Virus record (IMG/VR): IMGVR_UViG_2609460356_000006
Reading direction: 5' to 3' (one strand)
Length of the DNA stretch: 8,301 bases
Origin: a virus
Taxonomy: Duplodnaviria > Heunggongvirae > Uroviricota > Caudoviricetes
Positions 1-7,254 of this stretch are shown here, piece after piece. Under the pieces are notes generated by a model, which did no database searches, was not told the DNA's origin, and saw only the letters and a list, made by a program, of their open reading frames with translations. The position numbers were made by a program, and so were the translations under genes. Numbering within the stretch: the stretch's first letter is position 1; the number at the start of each line of letters is the position of its first letter.

Positions 1-348
1 AAATCGCGCCAGCGCTGGCTGTTTTACGCGTATGACAGGCTCCGGAAGACGGTTGTTGCGCACGTATTCGGTGAACGCACTATGGCGACGCTGGGGCGTC
101 TTATGAGCCTGCTGTCACCCTTTGACGTGGTGATATGGATGACGGATGGCTGGCCGCTGTATGAATCCCGCCTGAAGGGAAAGCTGCACGTAATCAGCAA
201 GCGATATACGCAGCGAATTGAGCGGCATAACCTGAATCTGAGGCAGCACCTGGCACGGCTGGGACGGAAGTCGCTGTCGTTCTCAAAATCGGTGGAGCTG
301 CATGACAAAGTCATCGGGCATTATCTGAACATAAAACACTATCAATAA
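1..348 (+). CDS. insB: IS1 transposase InsB, C-terminal part (5'-truncated by window edge)
   Basis: Frame 1 is open from nt 1 ([38 protein letters not shown]...HYLNIKHYQ-stop); the 82..348 ORF is the tail of this frame. Recognised as InsB from memory. Confidence 0.9.
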
Positions 349-363
349 GTTGGAGTCATTACC
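1..363 (+). mobile_element. IS1 insertion sequence, right-hand portion only (left part lies outside the window); right terminal inverted repeat ends at 363
   Basis: Sequence 1-363 matches the IS1 3' region from memory, including the characteristic terminus ...CACTATCAATAAGTTGGAGTCATTACC ending at 363; frame 1 encodes the InsB C-terminus. Confidence 0.9.
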
Positions 364-390: not shown

Positions 391-491
391 GGTGAACAGG
401 TGAATACTTGGTGAACACTTCAATAAAAAGTGTTCCCCCCTTAACTATCTGTTAAATAGACGATTTTATCCACGGTGAATAGTGGTGAACA
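391..491. repeat. Iteron cluster, 5 copies of GGTGAAYA (reverse complement TRTTCACC), crr-like cis replication region just 3' of the helicase gene
   Basis: GGTGAACA at 391-398, 410-417, 484-491; GGTGAATA at 399-406, 474-481; plus inverted copy GAACACTT/AAGTGTTC at 413-420/428-435. The octamer equals the P4 alpha-protein type I iteron TGTTCACC as I recall it. Confidence 0.6.
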
Positions 492-500
492 CTTTTCCCA

Positions 501-2270
501 TTACTTTTGATTTTCTCCACTGTTATGAGATGTATCATTCCACATAGGCATCCAGTCTTCTGAGTCGTCGTGAAGCGTGACGTTTGACCTTATGCCATGT
601 TTTGTTTTGCGCTTCTGGTACTCCTTGCCATATTCAGCCATTGCGCCTGGCATATCCGTACCGAACCTCATCAGCGATACCGGCTTGCTCAGACCATTAG
701 CCCGCATATAAGCCAGATAAGCGTGATACAGATAACGGCGCGGGCTGAATGGCACGATCTCGGCATTGCCAATCAGCATTCCATCACAAACCACCGAAGC
801 CATCAGGTAGCCGCAAAAGTCCACCAGTGAATCCCCTTCACGTTTGATGGCCAGCGCTTCTTCTGATTTCTGCTGCTCATGCAAAAGCTGTTTGGCTTCG
901 TCCTGCCTGGAAAAGCGAGTGAGCAGGTGGCGAATGATTACAGCCAGCTCACCTTCAATCTTCTCGGCCAGCATAGGATCGCGTTCGTTTTCCGGTACCA
1001 CTTCGGAGAAGTTGAAAATCACCCGCCGTCTGGAAACCCCCCCGCTTCTGTCGCTGAACGACATGGCATTGTTATTGACGGCAAGCACCACCGCTGGAAT
1101 ACGGGTTGAATATGGCGCTTTGTGTTTAGGGTCAATGGCTACCTTATCCCCGCCAGTGATAGCTTTAATCCCTGCGCCGTCGCCAGCGTACCGGGTCATA
1201 TCCGGCATGATAATCAGCGAATAGCCCACTACCAGCGCCCTTTCCCTTGGGTTCTCCAGCGCCGCCATGCTCGCTGATACGGTGTTGGCCTTGCCCGCCA
1301 GCATCGTGCAGATCTCAGCCATAACACTTTTACCACTTCCGCCCGGCCCCGTTACCTCAAGAAACAGCTGCCAGTCGTACCGGTTCGCCAGCACCATAAA
1401 CAGCGCAGACAGTACGCGGTCTGCTTTTCGGTCATTATCCGCCACTGAGCGGCGGAGCCATTTCCAGAAGTTCGGCGCATGGGTTGCCAGAGTCTCTCCT
1501 TCTGCTGGTTCGCTGAATGGCAATTCGCTCGCAACGATAAGCCAGTCCTTTTTATCATGCGGTCGAAATTGGCCTAACCGGGTATCAAAAACCCCGTTGC
1601 TGAAACCAATAAGATTTCGGGCTGTATTACCCATCACTGGCAGACCCAGCTTCATTGTATCGACAGCGGATTTAATCGCGTTCTGCGAATAGGCGACTTC
1701 GGCATCAATAAAAATTTGCGCCATTTCCCGCTGTAGCTCTTTATCCGAAAGCGGAACCCACACCACGCCGTTGTAATGATGAACCGTGTCAGAATCAGCA
1801 TGGATCGCCAGATTGCCATCGTAATGAGCAAGCAGAACCTCCCCGCGCTGGCTGGCTCCCATCTGGTTAAGCGCTGGCGTAGCACTACCCCTCGTAGTCA
1901 CCATTAGGGGCTCGTCTTCCAAACGCTTCATTAATGGCGTCCAGTCCTCTTTCTCACCTTTTTCGTTGATAAACTCAGCATTGGTAACGCCAGCCTCACA
2001 CAGCTTATTTGCAATCATGCTGATTTGGTTTTGCTCGATAAGTCCGGCCTGACAGACACGAGCAAACCGACGGCCTTTATCAACAATGCGCAGGTGTGGC
2101 AATTCCGCCAGTTGGGTGTGATCCAGAACCACAGGTGGAACATCGTCTCCATGCTCGCCCTTGCCTTTCTGGTAATCCTGAGCGGCTTTCCATGCTCCCG
2201 TTCCAGCAAAGATGATGGCCTCCTCCATTTTGTCGCGCGGGAGGGTTTTCACATTAGGCGCGTTTTTCAT
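501..2270 (-). CDS. P4 alpha-like replication protein: P-loop (SF3-type) helicase of the phage/plasmid primase P4 family, probably with C-terminal iteron-binding domain
   Basis: 589-aa ORF with Walker A GPGGSGKS (aa 308-315) and Walker B-like LIIMPDM; sits at the end of a small-gene operon and directly upstream of the TGTTCACC-type iterons. Confidence 0.85.
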   Translation of the reverse strand: MKNAPNVKTLPRDKMEEAIIFAGTGAWKAAQDYQKGKGEHGDDVPPVVLDHTQLAELPHLRIVDKGRRFARVCQAGLIEQNQISMIANKLCEAGVTNAEFINEKGEKEDWTPLMKRLEDEPLMVTTRGSATPALNQMGASQRGEVLLAHYDGNLAIHADSDTVHHYNGVVWVPLSDKELQREMAQIFIDAEVAYSQNAIKSAVDTMKLGLPVMGNTARNLIGFSNGVFDTRLGQFRPHDKKDWLIVASELPFSEPAEGETLATHAPNFWKWLRRSVADNDRKADRVLSALFMVLANRYDWQLFLEVTGPGGSGKSVMAEICTMLAGKANTVSASMAALENPRERALVVGYSLIIMPDMTRYAGDGAGIKAITGGDKVAIDPKHKAPYSTRIPAVVLAVNNNAMSFSDRSGGVSRRRVIFNFSEVVPENERDPMLAEKIEGELAVIIRHLLTRFSRQDEAKQLLHEQQKSEEALAIKREGDSLVDFCGYLMASVVCDGMLIGNAEIVPFSPRRYLYHAYLAYMRANGLSKPVSLMRFGTDMPGAMAEYGKEYQKRKTKHGIRSNVTLHDDSEDWMPMWNDTSHNSGENQK

Positions 2271-2647: not shown

Positions 2648-2838
2648 TTTGTCTCTCCCATGTGCAGCTCGGCGATTAATGCCCGGTGAATTTCCTGATT
2701 AAAATCACACGCAATAGAAATCAGATTCAGCAGCGTTTCTGAACATTCAGCAGAGGCTTTTTCCAGGATGGTTTCGTAAAGTGATGAAGCCAGCGCTGAT
2801 TTATATTCGGCCTGCTCCAGACAGATTGGCTCACGCAT
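2644..2838 (-). CDS. Hypothetical small protein (64 aa) in the replication operon
   Basis: ORF overlapping both neighbours by a few nt; no recognisable motif. Confidence 0.5.
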
Positions 2839-3022
2839 AGCGAACCTCCTGAACTGGTAGACGGCCAGCGCATACCATCACGCAGCCAGCCGGTGATTGC
2901 TCACGGGCTTCGCGCTCAGTGTTAGCTGTGATGTGAATGACGTTGCGACCGATGGCGCTCAGTGCAAGAAAACGCCAGATGTAGGACTTCCGCCCTTGCG
3001 GGTGTGTGATATGATCTTTCAT
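2831..3022 (-). CDS. Small Ash/Icd-like protein (63 aa), first gene of the leftward operon (position analogous to P4 kil)
   Basis: Internal ATG at 3022-3020 of the long 2831..3805 ORF, preceded by GAGG 5 nt upstream; product [63 protein letters not shown] resembles the Ash/Icd-like small proteins of P4-like islands (from memory). Confidence 0.6.
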
Positions 3023-3109
3023 AGCTGCCTCGTTACTTTCGCTAACGGTGGTGGTTAGAGGCCCGGTTAGTGTTCCACCACTGCCGGGCTTTGCTTTACT
3101 AAAAGTCAT

Positions 3110-3169
3110 GCAATGTAGTACATTGTCAACTCCACTACAGACTAGACCACAGGAGTTGACAATGTCAAC
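3110..3169. promoter_or_regulatory. Divergent control region with palindromic operator-like sites
   Basis: Perfect palindromes CAATGTAgTACATTG (3110-3124) and GTTGACAaTGTCAAC (3155-3169, centred on the RHH start codon), extra half-site TTGTCAAC (3123-3130); 13-bp inverted repeat CATTGTCAACTCC (3121-3133) / GGAGTTGACAATG (3152-3164). Confidence 0.5.
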
Positions 3170-3335
3170 AAGCGAAAATAAAGAGCGCCATGTTGTGCAG
3201 CTCAGACTCGATAAAGAACTGTCAGAGCGGCTCGCTTTAGCGATGAAAGAAGACGGTGACGATAATAAGTCGGGATGGATAAAACGCCTTTTGCGCCGTG
3301 AACTTGATAAGCGCGGCATCGAGCCAAAAGGCTGA
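3162..3335 (+). CDS. Ribbon-helix-helix-type small DNA-binding protein (57 aa), candidate repressor of the divergent operon
   Basis: ATG at 3162 preceded by AGGAG (3151-3155); N-terminal beta-strand pattern [12 protein letters not shown] followed by two predicted helices. The 3048 start of the ORF track lacks an RBS. Confidence 0.65.
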
Positions 3336-3421
3336 ACAGGGTTACTCCCCGTAATGCTGTGGACTGCCCCTCTTAAAAAGGGTCTGTTTTGCGCAACTAT
3401 TAATGAGTTGTGCAGAGGCTC

Positions 3422-3445
3422 CCCTCTTAAAGAGGGTTGGTTATC
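3422..3445 (+). terminator. Possible weak hairpin terminator
   Basis: CCCTC-TTAAA-GAGGG stem-loop (3422-3436) followed by a T-rich stretch; a similar but weaker copy at 3367-3382. Confidence 0.3.
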
Positions 3446-3654
3446 TTCGCAGCTCTCTACGTTTTTCGTCGGAGCCTCTAAACCACGTTTAACGTTGTTT
3501 TGCCATGAACCCGAATACTGTTCGCCTTTGTCTCGATCTCCGTACGTTAAACGTACGCGGTTAATTTGTGCGTACGGATTTCGTCGGCTCAAGGTTTGAC
3601 CACCAGCGGCAAGCCTGGTAATCTGGCGATGTTTCTGTAAAGCGGTATTGCACT

Positions 3655-3683
3655 GGCGGCCCGGCATGGCCGCCTTTGTTTTG
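3655..3683 (+). terminator. Rho-independent terminator for a plus-strand transcript
   Basis: Stem GGCGGCC (3655-3661) / GGCCGCC (3668-3674), 6-nt loop, followed by TTTGTTTTG (3675-3683). Confidence 0.6.
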
Positions 3684-3687
3684 CCTG

Positions 3688-4380
3688 TCATACAATAGCC
3701 TCCACTTTCAGCCCGCCAGCGGTATACCCCTGAACCCGAACACCATCGACGCGATGACGCTTTTTCGTCAGAAAGCGGATGTGATCTGCGTAGACGTACT
3801 GCCATTTACCATCGAGTGCCACACGTTTAAACCACGGATGAGGCTTAGATATGGTCTGGACAACTGGCGCGGAAGCCTTGCAGGGCGTGGGTTCTGCTGT
3901 GCATACCCCCTTATCGTTACCCGTTACTCTATACAGCCAGTAACTTGCCAGCTTCCCGGTCAATTTACGGGTGCGCACGGGGATATAACCCGCCTCACGC
4001 ATCGCCTTACCAAAAGTGGCATCGTCCGGGTAATACTGGCGGCGTAGTTCCGTAGATACTGAAACGGCAAAGCTGCGTTTAGTCGGGTATTCCTGCCACT
4101 GGCCGACAAATTCAAAAGGAAGACCATTAACCCTTCCTTTGGTCTTGTCCTTGCCGCTTATCCCTACATCATGGTCTGCCTCATGCACGGACACGCCGGA
4201 ACGCAGCCACACCAGCCCGTTACCGTTGTGGCGCAACCCCAGATCGGCAAGCGTAAATTCACCGCGATTAATGGGCGACCAGTCACCGGAAATAACCTGT
4301 TTACGGTTCGCTGAAATATCGTGCTGGCTGGCTACAGGGTGAGCGAATCCCTGCCCGTGGAGGGCATTAATCTTTTTCAT
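3688..4380 (-). CDS. Conserved hypothetical protein (230 aa) downstream of alpA; possibly the inovirus Gp2 / YfjJ-like family (low confidence)
   Basis: Long ORF with SD-like AGGT about 9 nt upstream, 20 nt after the AlpA-like stop (operon). Family guess rests on synteny in P4-like islands only. Confidence 0.75.
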
Positions 4381-4400
4381 CTCAGATTACCTGTGGTTAA

Positions 4401-4685
4401 TTAAGCAGATTTACGGCTGTATGGGTTATTGACGTTCTCTACTGCTGGCGGATTACGAACCCACCAGAGCACATCCGAAAGAAGCCAAGCACAGCTATTG
4501 CGGCCAAAGTGACAGCGCGGAGGGAAGCGCCCCTGCTGCTCCATCTTCCAGCGGCTGGAACGGGAAAGACTGGTGATCTCGCTGCATTCATCTTCACGGA
4601 TTCGGCGATCAAACTTAAAGCCGTACTCTTCTAAAAGGGTGCGGCGCTGTTCAGGATTTGGCGGGGTAAAGGTTATATTTTGCAT
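4401..4685 (-). CDS. alpA: AlpA/Vis-family phage transcriptional regulator (MerR-like HTH), 94 aa with N-terminal extension
   Basis: SLSRSSRW...GRFPPRCHFGRNSCAWLLSDVLWWV aligns by eye with the AlpA HTH and W-x3-EVxxW motifs; GGAGG upstream of the ATG. Confidence 0.8.
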   Translation of the reverse strand: MQNITFTPPNPEQRRTLLEEYGFKFDRRIREDECSEITSLSRSSRWKMEQQGRFPPRCHFGRNSCAWLLSDVLWWVRNPPAVENVNNPYSRKSA

Positions 4686-4807: not shown

Positions 4808-4940
4808 ATAACGCTCCCCTGTTTAAAACAGTTTCCACAGTAATTTCAACGGCTGTCTCGAGAGAAAAAATCATGAATTTCAATAACTCGCCGAAGATCA
4901 CCGTTCTTTAACGATTTGATTCACCTTGGATTGTTCATAA

Positions 4941-5000
4941 CAAAGATGAACAATGATGAACGCTGATGAACAGTGATGAATAACCATGAACAAAGATGGA
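4941..5000. repeat. Six tandem 10-bp units nnnGATGAAC (iteron-like, TGTTCATC on the other strand), candidate ori
   Basis: GATGAAC at 4945, 4955, 4965, with GATGAAT at 4975, CATGAAC at 4985, GATGGA at 4995, all in strict 10-bp register; inverted TGTTCAT at 4932-4938. Confidence 0.5.
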
Positions 5001-5040
5001 AAAAGTTAGCAAGTAATGACCTAGTAGGGACCGTGGATGG

Positions 5041-5140
5041 AGCTAGGTATTGTTAGGTGCTGTCGGGTGCCGTTACGTGTCATAACGTGTCATTACGTGT
5101 CGTTGAATGCTGTTGAATGCTGTTGAATGCTGTTGAATGT
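5041..5140. repeat. Phased decamer array continuing the 10-bp register
   Basis: TGTYRGGTGC x2 (5051-5070), CRTWACGTGT x3 (5071-5100), YGTTGAATGY x4 (5101-5140); no unique spacers between units. Confidence 0.6.
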
Positions 5141-5275: not shown

Positions 5276-5926
5276 TCATTCCGTATAATAAATCGAATTT
5301 AATGCCTTTCGAATTTTCTCATATATTGCTGATTTAGATAATCCAGTTTTAGATATACCTTCCTCATCAGCTAATTTATATAGTTCGTTTAAAATAGCCG
5401 AGATGCTTGGTTTTTTAGAGGTGCCAAACGAATGGCCTATCTTATGTGCTATAAGCTTGACCAGCATCCCCATTAATTTATCATTATATTCCTTTTCATC
5501 TTCTTTACGATGCAAGCCGCGTTTGCTGCTTTTCAATGCAATTCCGACCTGTAAAAGCTCATCCCCTCCCATAGCATAAAGATGCTCTTTTCCTTTGTTT
5601 TGATTAGCAATTATAGCCACCGCCGCAAGGCATCTGTCCTTTATGGGTTGTGGTGTAATATCTTCATCAATAAGAGGATATGCCAGAGCAAACATATAGT
5701 CTGCGGGATAGGCTGTTGAGTTTCCACCTCGAAATAATTTAGATGCTGATAACCATCTACTCAGTTGTCGATAGTATATATTGTAAGCTTCAACTTTCGC
5801 TTCAGGGATATCAGCAGTTTTAACTGTCGGATCTACCCCACACATAAGTAGTGCAAGTTGTTTAATATTTAGCTCCGGGGCTTTGGCTTCTCGCTCGAAA
5901 ATACCCAATTTTAGAAAACTAGTCAT
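5276..5926 (-). CDS. AT-rich cargo protein of unknown function (216 aa) with a C-terminal HTH-like segment, start/stop-coupled to int
   Basis: ATG (5926-5924) overlaps the integrase stop as TAATG; sampled 60-nt lines give roughly 27-45% G+C against about 65% in a sampled line of the replication module; C-terminal ISKTGLSKSAIYEKIRKAL resembles an HTH; no family recognised. Confidence 0.75.
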   Translation of the reverse strand: MTSFLKLGIFEREAKAPELNIKQLALLMCGVDPTVKTADIPEAKVEAYNIYYRQLSRWLSASKLFRGGNSTAYPADYMFALAYPLIDEDITPQPIKDRCLAAVAIIANQNKGKEHLYAMGGDELLQVGIALKSSKRGLHRKEDEKEYNDKLMGMLVKLIAHKIGHSFGTSKKPSISAILNELYKLADEEGISKTGLSKSAIYEKIRKALNSIYYTE

Positions 5927-7146
5927 TATTCAGCCTTATTCAACAAAACAATGTTAGTGAATCCACCTGATAAAATATCAAGTCTGTCATACCATTTATT
6001 CAACGCATCCAGTTTCTCAGGCAAGTACAGACTACGGTTATAAATCGCCATGACTCCCGGCATTGAGTGCCCCAGCAACTGTTCGACAACGTGTGGTGCT
6101 ATACCCATATTATTCATATGCGTTGCTAAAGTTCGTCTTAGATCGTGCAGTGTCCATGGTTCAGAATGCCCTAGCTTTTTATAAACGCCGCGGCCCCACT
6201 GACTTACCGCTTCACTGCCTTTAACCGACCCAAGCAAAAGGCCGGATCGTTTCGTTTCATCATGCAGTATTTCAATGAATTTGCGCATGGCATCCGGCAC
6301 AGGTCTTACAATCTTCTCGCCACCCTTGCTGTGCTCTTTGGGAACTGTCCAGACCCAGGCATCCATATCCCATTCACTCCACTCTGATAGCCTGGCCTCC
6401 TGCGTTCGGCACCCAAACACTATTAAGATTGTCAGTAGCCTGGTGTAGTAAGGCATGAAGCAAGTGCCAGAGGAAATGGCAGCCCATAAATCGCCAGCCT
6501 CTTTATCGTTTAATACCCGGTCTTTTTTTGCCTGTTTTTTACCGACATCTGGAATTGTTAAATCTTCAAGCGCGGTACTCACAGCATAGCGACGAACCCG
6601 GCAGAATTTCAGGGCTTGTTTGCACATCTGGAACACATAACCTGCGGCGACTGGAGTTTTCTTTTTCATCCTGTCAAAGCAGTCAAGCCAGTATCGTGTT
6701 TCACAGTCAGCGAGCGCCATTTTCCCTATATAAGGATAAATGTGTTTTCGCAGCTCCGCTTTGTGCCGTTCAACATTCGCGCGGTTCTCTTCTGCATATT
6801 CGCGTATCCAGTATTCTATAGCTTCCTTAACAGTGACCGGTTTAAGGGTTTCCTGAGTAGTCAACGCCAACTGGTGCTTTGGATCTTTACCTGAGGCCAG
6901 CCACTGGCGGCATTTATCACGCGATGAACGGGCTTCTTTGAGGCTCATATCCGGGTATCGTCCCAGAGTCAGACGATGCAGCTTCTGCCCGTCAAGTCGG
7001 TAAGTAAACACCCAGCTAATACCACCAGCTTTAGTTACCTTGGCGCTCAGCCCGGCACCATCAGCATAGAACTCAATCTTACTGGCCGGGATACCATGTA
7101 ATCCCTTTAACTTCCTGTCGCTCAGTTTGTTAAGTTCGCCAGCCAT
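5926..7146 (-). CDS. int: Tyrosine site-specific integrase, P4-like family (406 aa)
   Basis: N-terminal arm-binding-type region (LSDRKLKGL...WVFTYRLDGQKLHRLTLGRYPDMSLKEAR), catalytic motifs HDLRRT, LLGHS and downstream Tyr; N-terminus faces the host junction. Confidence 0.9.
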   Translation of the reverse strand: MAGELNKLSDRKLKGLHGIPASKIEFYADGAGLSAKVTKAGGISWVFTYRLDGQKLHRLTLGRYPDMSLKEARSSRDKCRQWLASGKDPKHQLALTTQETLKPVTVKEAIEYWIREYAEENRANVERHKAELRKHIYPYIGKMALADCETRYWLDCFDRMKKKTPVAAGYVFQMCKQALKFCRVRRYAVSTALEDLTIPDVGKKQAKKDRVLNDKEAGDLWAAISSGTCFMPYYTRLLTILIVFGCRTQEARLSEWSEWDMDAWVWTVPKEHSKGGEKIVRPVPDAMRKFIEILHDETKRSGLLLGSVKGSEAVSQWGRGVYKKLGHSEPWTLHDLRRTLATHMNNMGIAPHVVEQLLGHSMPGVMAIYNRSLYLPEKLDALNKWYDRLDILSGGFTNIVLLNKAE

Positions 7147-7164: not shown

Positions 7165-7254
7165 TGTTTATACAAATGTTTATACAGAATTGCTTGCATA
7201 ATAGCATAAACAAAGAAAAACACTGGAACAATATACAGGCATGAATTTATACAA
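7165..7254. promoter_or_regulatory. Repeated TTATACA(R) motif in the int upstream/att region, candidate arm-type integrase sites and int promoter region
   Basis: Tandem TGTTTATACA at 7165-7174 and 7177-7186; related ATATACAG at 7231-7238 and TTTATACAA at 7246-7254; AT-rich. Confidence 0.35.

Follow-up and report, generated by a model that had tools for sequence, protein, structure and literature searches.

An octamer cluster directly 3' of a helicase gene as the probable rep-proximal half of a replication origin in a capsid-forming PICI of E. coli

The stretch of DNA analysed here, 8,301 nucleotides that we call the window, carries at 391-491 a cluster of octamers immediately 3' of a helicase gene, rep. 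Comparison with related elements makes it highly probable that this cluster forms one half, the rep-proximal one, of the origin from which a capsid-forming PICI replicates; the element sits in E. coli between fis and yhdJ. PICI-type origins are a kind already known, and common. Following a model taken from PICI and SaPI Reps (PMC6092414; PMC9371898) together with P4 biochemistry, the C-terminal winged-helix domain of Rep would bind the TGTTCACC/TATTCACC octamers on both sides of an AT-rich stretch, and the SF3 helicase part would load itself, assemble and presumably melt the 35 bp between them. Induction of the satellite would then set replication going. Where the element is intact, a second, crr-like block directly adjoins the first, and the two blocks would act as one origin.

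Scanning both strands of the window for GGTGAAYA gives five exact matches, all on the plus strand, with starts at 391, 399, 410, 474 and 484, and these are the five octamers that an earlier note on this DNA had reported. A scan that allows one mismatch adds a sixth copy at 431-438, which is inverted and reads GGGGAACA on the minus strand. The earlier note also placed the cluster directly 3' of an alpha-like helicase gene, and indeed 9 bp separate the stop codon of the 589-aa open reading frame from the nearest iteron. Read in gene orientation, two direct iterons are followed by the 35-bp AT-rich stretch, one inverted iteron and three further direct ones, with start-to-start distances of 10, 43, 21, 11 and 8. 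The features of this end of the window are as follows.

1..363, plus strand: 3' part of an IS1 inserted into the origin, with an InsB C-terminus ORF at 82-348 and its right end (...GTTGGAGTCATTACC) at 363
364-367, no strand: CACC, the surviving piece of a degenerate iteron (GGTGAAGG in gene orientation) split by IS1, from comparison with L005 and L003
364..390, no strand: what remains of the linker joining the two halves of the origin, from comparison with the intact siblings L005 and L003
410-417, 399-406 and 391-398, minus strand: three direct iterons, TGTTCACC, TATTCACC and TGTTCACC (gene orientation), in columns kept across 14 relatives from 8 genera
431..438, plus strand: single inverted iteron, mutated, TGTTCCCC on the plus strand (A436C by comparison with the intact sibling)
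439..473, no strand: AT-rich spacer of 35 bp, 24/35 A/T (69%), presumed DNA unwinding element, read from the sequence
474..491, minus strand: two direct iterons nearest the rep stop, TGTTCACC at 484-491 and TATTCACC at 474-481 (gene orientation)

In the intact sibling the A/T content of the spacer peaks at 75-80% in 20-bp windows, and among 14 relatives its length is kept while its sequence varies. We considered a DnaA-box-like TTATCCACG at 465-473, which abuts the iteron at 474, as an origin element and rejected it, as it is found only in this lineage and is not conserved in other relatives. Its 8/9 match to the DnaA box consensus is probably fortuitous.

The origins of Gram-negative PICIs lie immediately 3' of the replication initiation gene and consist of two iteron sets around an AT-rich region (Fillol-Salom et al. 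2018, PMC6092414). Both properties are found here: the first iteron follows the rep stop closely, and two iterons on one side of the AT-rich stretch face one inverted and three direct iterons on the other. In the replicon of EcCICFT073, plasmid maintenance needs both pri-rep and ori, and this replicon is sufficient in E. coli DH5alpha (PMC6092414). In that element, located by its published coordinates, 288 bp follow pri-rep. Their iterons point as in the window and are spaced by 9, 48, 20, 11 and 9, and a comparable distal block is present, of the design seen in intact siblings of the window element. The Pri-Rep of EcCICFT073 is 41% identical to the window's Rep over its full length, and its N-terminal domain is of the same type. 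The cluster has, in other words, the architecture of an experimentally validated PICI origin, less the distal part that IS1 has cut off from the window. The two systems differ in their word, which is TGTCTACC in EcCICFT073 and TGTTCACC in the window, and in that EcCICFT073 is a classical PICI whereas the host element of the window is probably a capsid-forming one.

SaPI origins offer a further parallel. Their Rep helicases are self-loading, and each iteron is five or six nucleotides long (Qiao et al. 2022, PMC9371898). The iterons lie directly downstream of rep, the AT-rich centre has opposite-pointing iterons on each side and, as proposed here, a C-terminal winged-helix domain reads them (PMC9371898). 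The SaPI iterons are shorter, however, and the proteins are distantly related (PDB 7OLA against the helicase core, E=1.7e-9).

The initiator encoded next to the cluster has the following parts.

501..2270, minus strand: rep, 589-aa initiator-helicase (Pfam D5_N, DUF5906, Pox_D5)
546-836, minus strand: C-terminal winged-helix origin-binding domain of Rep, aa 479-575 (PDB 1KA8)
1026-1352, minus strand: SF3 helicase core of Rep (Pfam DUF5906)
1452-1841, minus strand: D5_N of Rep (Pfam)
1872-2270, minus strand: N-terminal domain of Rep, of unknown function, aa 1-133

The model of iteron binding and melting by the P4 alpha protein comes from the work of Ziegelin, Lanka and Calendar. Rep and alpha have the helicase and the origin-binding domain in common: Rep is 51% identical to alpha over alpha residues 327-775, and Rep residues 479-575 match the P4 origin-binding domain (PDB 1KA8) with E=2.2e-25. 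This winged-helix domain is the putative reader of the iterons, as the C-terminal domain of alpha is at P4 ori. The two proteins differ at the other end, where alpha residues 1-326 hold a primase zinc ribbon and a Toprim domain, both missing from Rep, whose counterpart is a different N-terminus of 133 residues. We could recognise no primase domain in Rep, and residues 1-133 lacked a Pfam match even at E<=1. A PDB profile search with this domain gave nothing meaningful, its fold was equally uninformative and a protein search returned 7 fragments only. As these 133 residues lack a primase match, the helicase part is all that supports the public label 'DNA primase family protein'; and with no primase domain recognisable in Rep, either the host or an unrecognised activity must supply the priming. 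Among relatives the N-terminal domains swap independently, with three types on the same helicase and origin-binding body: that of the window and EcCICFT073, an unrelated second type (MSDALFSC...) and the P4-type zinc ribbon plus Toprim (loci L013-L028, L094).

An alternative reading, and the one that the earlier note leaned towards in stating that the cluster sits where crr lies, is that it corresponds to P4 crr and acts in cis as an enhancer for a separate origin elsewhere in the element. Our P4 reference was GenBank X51522, with ori at 9310-9413 and crr at 4291-4590, just 3' of alpha. This record labels TGTTCACC and close variants 'ori type 1 repeat' in ori and crr alike, so the octamer is the P4 iteron that the note had named, and both the word and its place directly 3' of an alpha-like gene are as in crr. 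The layout and spacing, however, are those of P4 ori and not of a crr unit. P4 ori has the identical octamer and six iterons, whose arrows point as in the window when both are read along the initiator gene and whose spacings are 10, 43, 22, 11 and 10; its AT-rich stretch corresponds to the 35-bp spacer of the window, and in the alignment similar bases, C(C/T)TTAACT..CTGT, come right after the inverted iteron. P4 crr consists instead of two 120-bp direct repeats with another iteron arrangement, and the cluster has neither. The repeat search that recovered the P4 pair of 120-nt repeats at 4291-4410 and 4471-4590 found no direct repeats of at least 20 nt in 364-520 of the window or in the origin of the intact sibling. 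Nor is there a separate iteron cluster for an enhancer to serve, either in the remaining 8.2 kb of the window or elsewhere in the intact 16-22 kb relatives. We therefore regard a crr equivalent as very unlikely. What stands of the earlier placement is the position 3' of the helicase gene; the number, orientation and spacing of the iterons, and part of the spacer, are those of ori.

A likeness to crr does exist, and it lies in the block that the window lacks. Each crr unit is arranged as two direct iterons, a T-rich spacer, two or three inverted iterons and one direct one, and only the distal block of the intact siblings, beyond the site of IS1, resembles this. Placed the same way round with respect to the initiator gene, that block aligns collinearly with each P4 crr unit and also with the crr-like cluster downstream of alpha in a P4-like element of Erwinia. 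These alignments indicate that P4 ori would be the counterpart of the proximal half, and P4 crr that of the distal half, of a contiguous PICI-type origin. P4 ori stands at the start of the left operon, some 4.7 kb away from crr, whereas the window cluster is 3' of rep; and type 2 repeats stand beside P4 ori, with none like them in the window or the sibling. The correspondence is possibly new, being unstated in the literature that we searched, which covered little of the older P4 work, and a full-text search for TGTTCACC gave primer-type matches only. Possibly new as well is the finding of one word and one geometry in P4, in classical PICIs (L004) and in this capsid-forming lineage.

Alternatively, the repeats might act mainly in transcription, as a rep terminator or as operators for autoregulation by Rep or for control of the packaging genes downstream. 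Arguing for this, the third direct iteron pairs with the inverted one in a hairpin of 9 bp, and the folding of the region is better than that of its shuffles (z = -2.6); in intact relatives, moreover, the next gene follows the distal iteron pair at a distance of about 40 bp. Counter to this, the hairpin lacks a U-tract, 330-640 contains nothing like a terminator or a sigma-70 site, there is no Rfam match, and P4 ori and EcCICFT073 ori, both documented as functional origins, share this architecture. A mainly transcriptional role is very unlikely in our view, although such a function on the side is conceivable.

The enrichment of the octamer, which the earlier note had made a test of its reading, is strong. 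All five exact copies fall in the cluster, with none on either strand of the window outside 391-491, and dinucleotide-preserving shuffles contain 0.46 copies on average and 3 at most, so that 0 of 200 reach five. In 90 kb of the E. coli CFT073 chromosome the octamer occurs 10 times (0.11 per kb) and never more than once per 101 bp, which puts its density in the cluster about 450-fold above that background. That the copies form a functionless chance or low-complexity cluster, for which only the shortness of the motif speaks, is hardly credible given these numbers and the retention of the cluster across genera while the spacers drift.

Homologous origins are present in 667/5,426 complete E. coli genomes; in 664 the match spans 80% or more of the origin, and no annotated feature lies under any of the 667. 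A scan for relatives, limited to one genome from each species, gave 80 loci. When 14 origins from Escherichia, Citrobacter, Klebsiella, Raoultella, Pluralibacter, Kluyvera, Pectobacterium and Serratia are aligned, conservation is 94% in the iteron columns and 79% in the spacer columns (Mann-Whitney p=4e-10). The short-form Reps of Citrobacter, Klebsiella, Raoultella, Pluralibacter, Kluyvera and Pectobacterium have the same word and layout directly past the stop codon. Long-form, primase-bearing alpha-like proteins of Xenorhabdus and Photorhabdus have arrays of TGTTCACC/TATTCACC right past the gene, and P4-like elements of Erwinia, Pantoea and Mixta have an ori-like cluster about 3 kb upstream and a crr-like one about 0.9 kb downstream, as in P4.

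In some relatives the word itself has been exchanged. At four loci the helicase part is 76-95% identical to that of the window and the origin-binding domain 68-72%; here the layout is kept and the word is TGTCTACC. Relatives at 89-95% for the helicase part and 69-72% for the origin-binding domain show this exchange. Other relatives use further words (CTGTCCGCC, TCTCCACC and CTATACACC). The architecture is thus constant and the word varies in step with the C-terminal domain, as expected if this domain reads the repeats. We rejected a 5-aa wing insertion, GPDKG, as the determinant of TGTCTACC specificity, since the EcCICFT073 domain uses TGTCTACC without it, although the other users of TGTCTACC have such an insertion; further evidence against it comes from L081 and L084, which have similar wings and different words.

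Homology to the intact siblings begins exactly at 364. Positions 1-363 match sequence annotated as IS1 family transposase in E. coli genomes, and L009 has a DDE_Tnp_IS1 gene at the same junction, which is absent from all complete E. coli genomes searched. In the intact siblings the gap of about 270 bp between rep and the next gene is full of iterons: after the six proximal copies comes a distal block of GGTGAAGG, GGTGAATA, GTGAATAC and TCTTCACC, a 36-bp A-rich stretch and a final GGTGAACAGGTGAACA. We propose that in intact elements the proximal and distal blocks constitute one origin of about 240 bp. IS1 inserted after the GGTG of the first distal iteron, exactly at the boundary of the two blocks.

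Over 7,938 bp the window differs from the intact sibling by two substitutions, one at 3801 and the other, A436C, in the inverted iteron. This iteron is an exact GGTGAACA in the intact relatives and an exact or near-exact one in 14/14 aligned relatives, and position 436 is kept in all 14. By chance, one of the six octamers would be hit in about 1% of cases. A436C could reflect relaxed selection after the IS1 hit, or it could be a coincidence. The copy of the origin in the window's strain is probably impaired by IS1 and A436C, and the satellite of this strain, its origin disrupted, may have lost replication.

The element itself, to judge by siblings encoding an identical Rep, is most probably a capsid-forming PICI between fis and yhdJ in E. 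coli. Starting inside IS1 (1-363), the window crosses the cluster and rep, then several small ORFs, a regulator of alpA type and a tyrosine integrase, and reaches the host gene yhdJ. It has int, an alpA-type regulator and a pri-rep gene at the left end, as capsid-forming PICIs do. Its remaining features are these.

4401..4685, minus strand: alpA-type regulator (Pfam Phage_AlpA, E=5e-10)
4939-4998: (GATGAACAnn)x6 array
5075-5101: (ACGTGTCAtn)x3 array
5102-5139: (GTTGAATGCT)x4 array
5926..7146, minus strand: tyrosine integrase (Pfam Arm-DNA-bind_3, Phage_integrase)
7167..7186, no strand: candidate att core of 20 bp (TGTATAAACATTTGTATAAA, rep orientation) at the integrase end, recurring at the fis end of L005 (21435-21454)

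The 20-bp repeat TGTATAAACATTTGTATAAA is likely the att core, and would set the right boundary of the element in the window. The identical Rep occurs in several assemblies, and the element is intact in six (L005-L008, L010 and L011). Past the origin these six encode a 114-aa protein, a nuclease-like protein, major capsid, protease, portal, head-closure, connector and HNH proteins and the small and large terminase, followed by fis. Capsid and packaging genes are also present in the relative L003, and the gene set of the intact siblings is that of a capsid-forming PICI (PMC10085698). By definition such an element has capsid, portal, head-tail connector and large terminase genes of its own and none for tail or lysis. 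The window is 100% identical to contig JNNC01000090.1 (GCA_000700585.1), which ends inside the same IS1; the packaging region of this strain would be on the far side of IS1, which the window does not cover and where the contig stops (L009). The earlier suggestion of a satellite-type replicating element thus holds as regards a replicating phage satellite, but the satellite is most probably a capsid-forming PICI and not P4-like, and its Rep is without the zinc-ribbon and Toprim primase domains.

The octamer and the ori geometry are common to P4, classical E. coli PICIs and this capsid-forming lineage, which suggests that their origins and initiators could be functionally interchangeable, with P4 ori/crr a split PICI-type origin. 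We put this forward as a tentative possibility, and rather doubt it. If it is true, satellites from different families that share a cell could cross-fire, titrate or exclude each other, and the IS1 insertion in the window's strain would be a second, natural split of a contiguous PICI-type origin. More directly, a common but unlabelled cis element gains an annotation tied to a specific initiator, Reps of the 'DNA primase family' turn out to be without a recognisable primase domain, and the ori/crr correspondence links two satellite families that have been described with different replication regions.

Several further observations concern the element and its relatives. The 590-bp gap upstream of alpA contains the three adjacent tandem arrays listed above (4939-5139), each with a 10-bp period, and the int-alpA gap of EcCICFT073 has a similar array with a GAACA core (L094 2188-2241). 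These arrays are probably sites for a regulator or the integrase, not for Rep. We rejected the GATGAACA 10-bp array (4939-4998) as a second Rep site comparable to the distant P4 ori, because EcCICFT073 has a similar array despite its other origin word.

The minus-strand ORF at 2831-3691 encodes 286 aa, of which the C-terminal 45 residues match the Icd-like host cell division inhibitor family (NF033153, E=7e-14). At the same position L003 and L006 have a stand-alone Icd-like gene of 63 aa in place of the 286-aa ORF.

Some of the related elements are filed under other names or in unusual arrangements. E. coli A33 (L004, NZ_CP028742.1 4250362-4269846) carries two or three PICI-like elements in tandem, each with a TGTTCACC-type origin, and many of their genes are annotated as frameshifted. 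A region 93% identical to the window occurs in LR881103 (L002), a 16.5-kb record deposited as an induced 'phage'. The int-alpA-rep-origin-capsid-portal-terminase layout of this record, LR881103.1 'Escherichia phage vB_KppS-Ant', is that of a capsid-forming PICI rather than of a complete phage.
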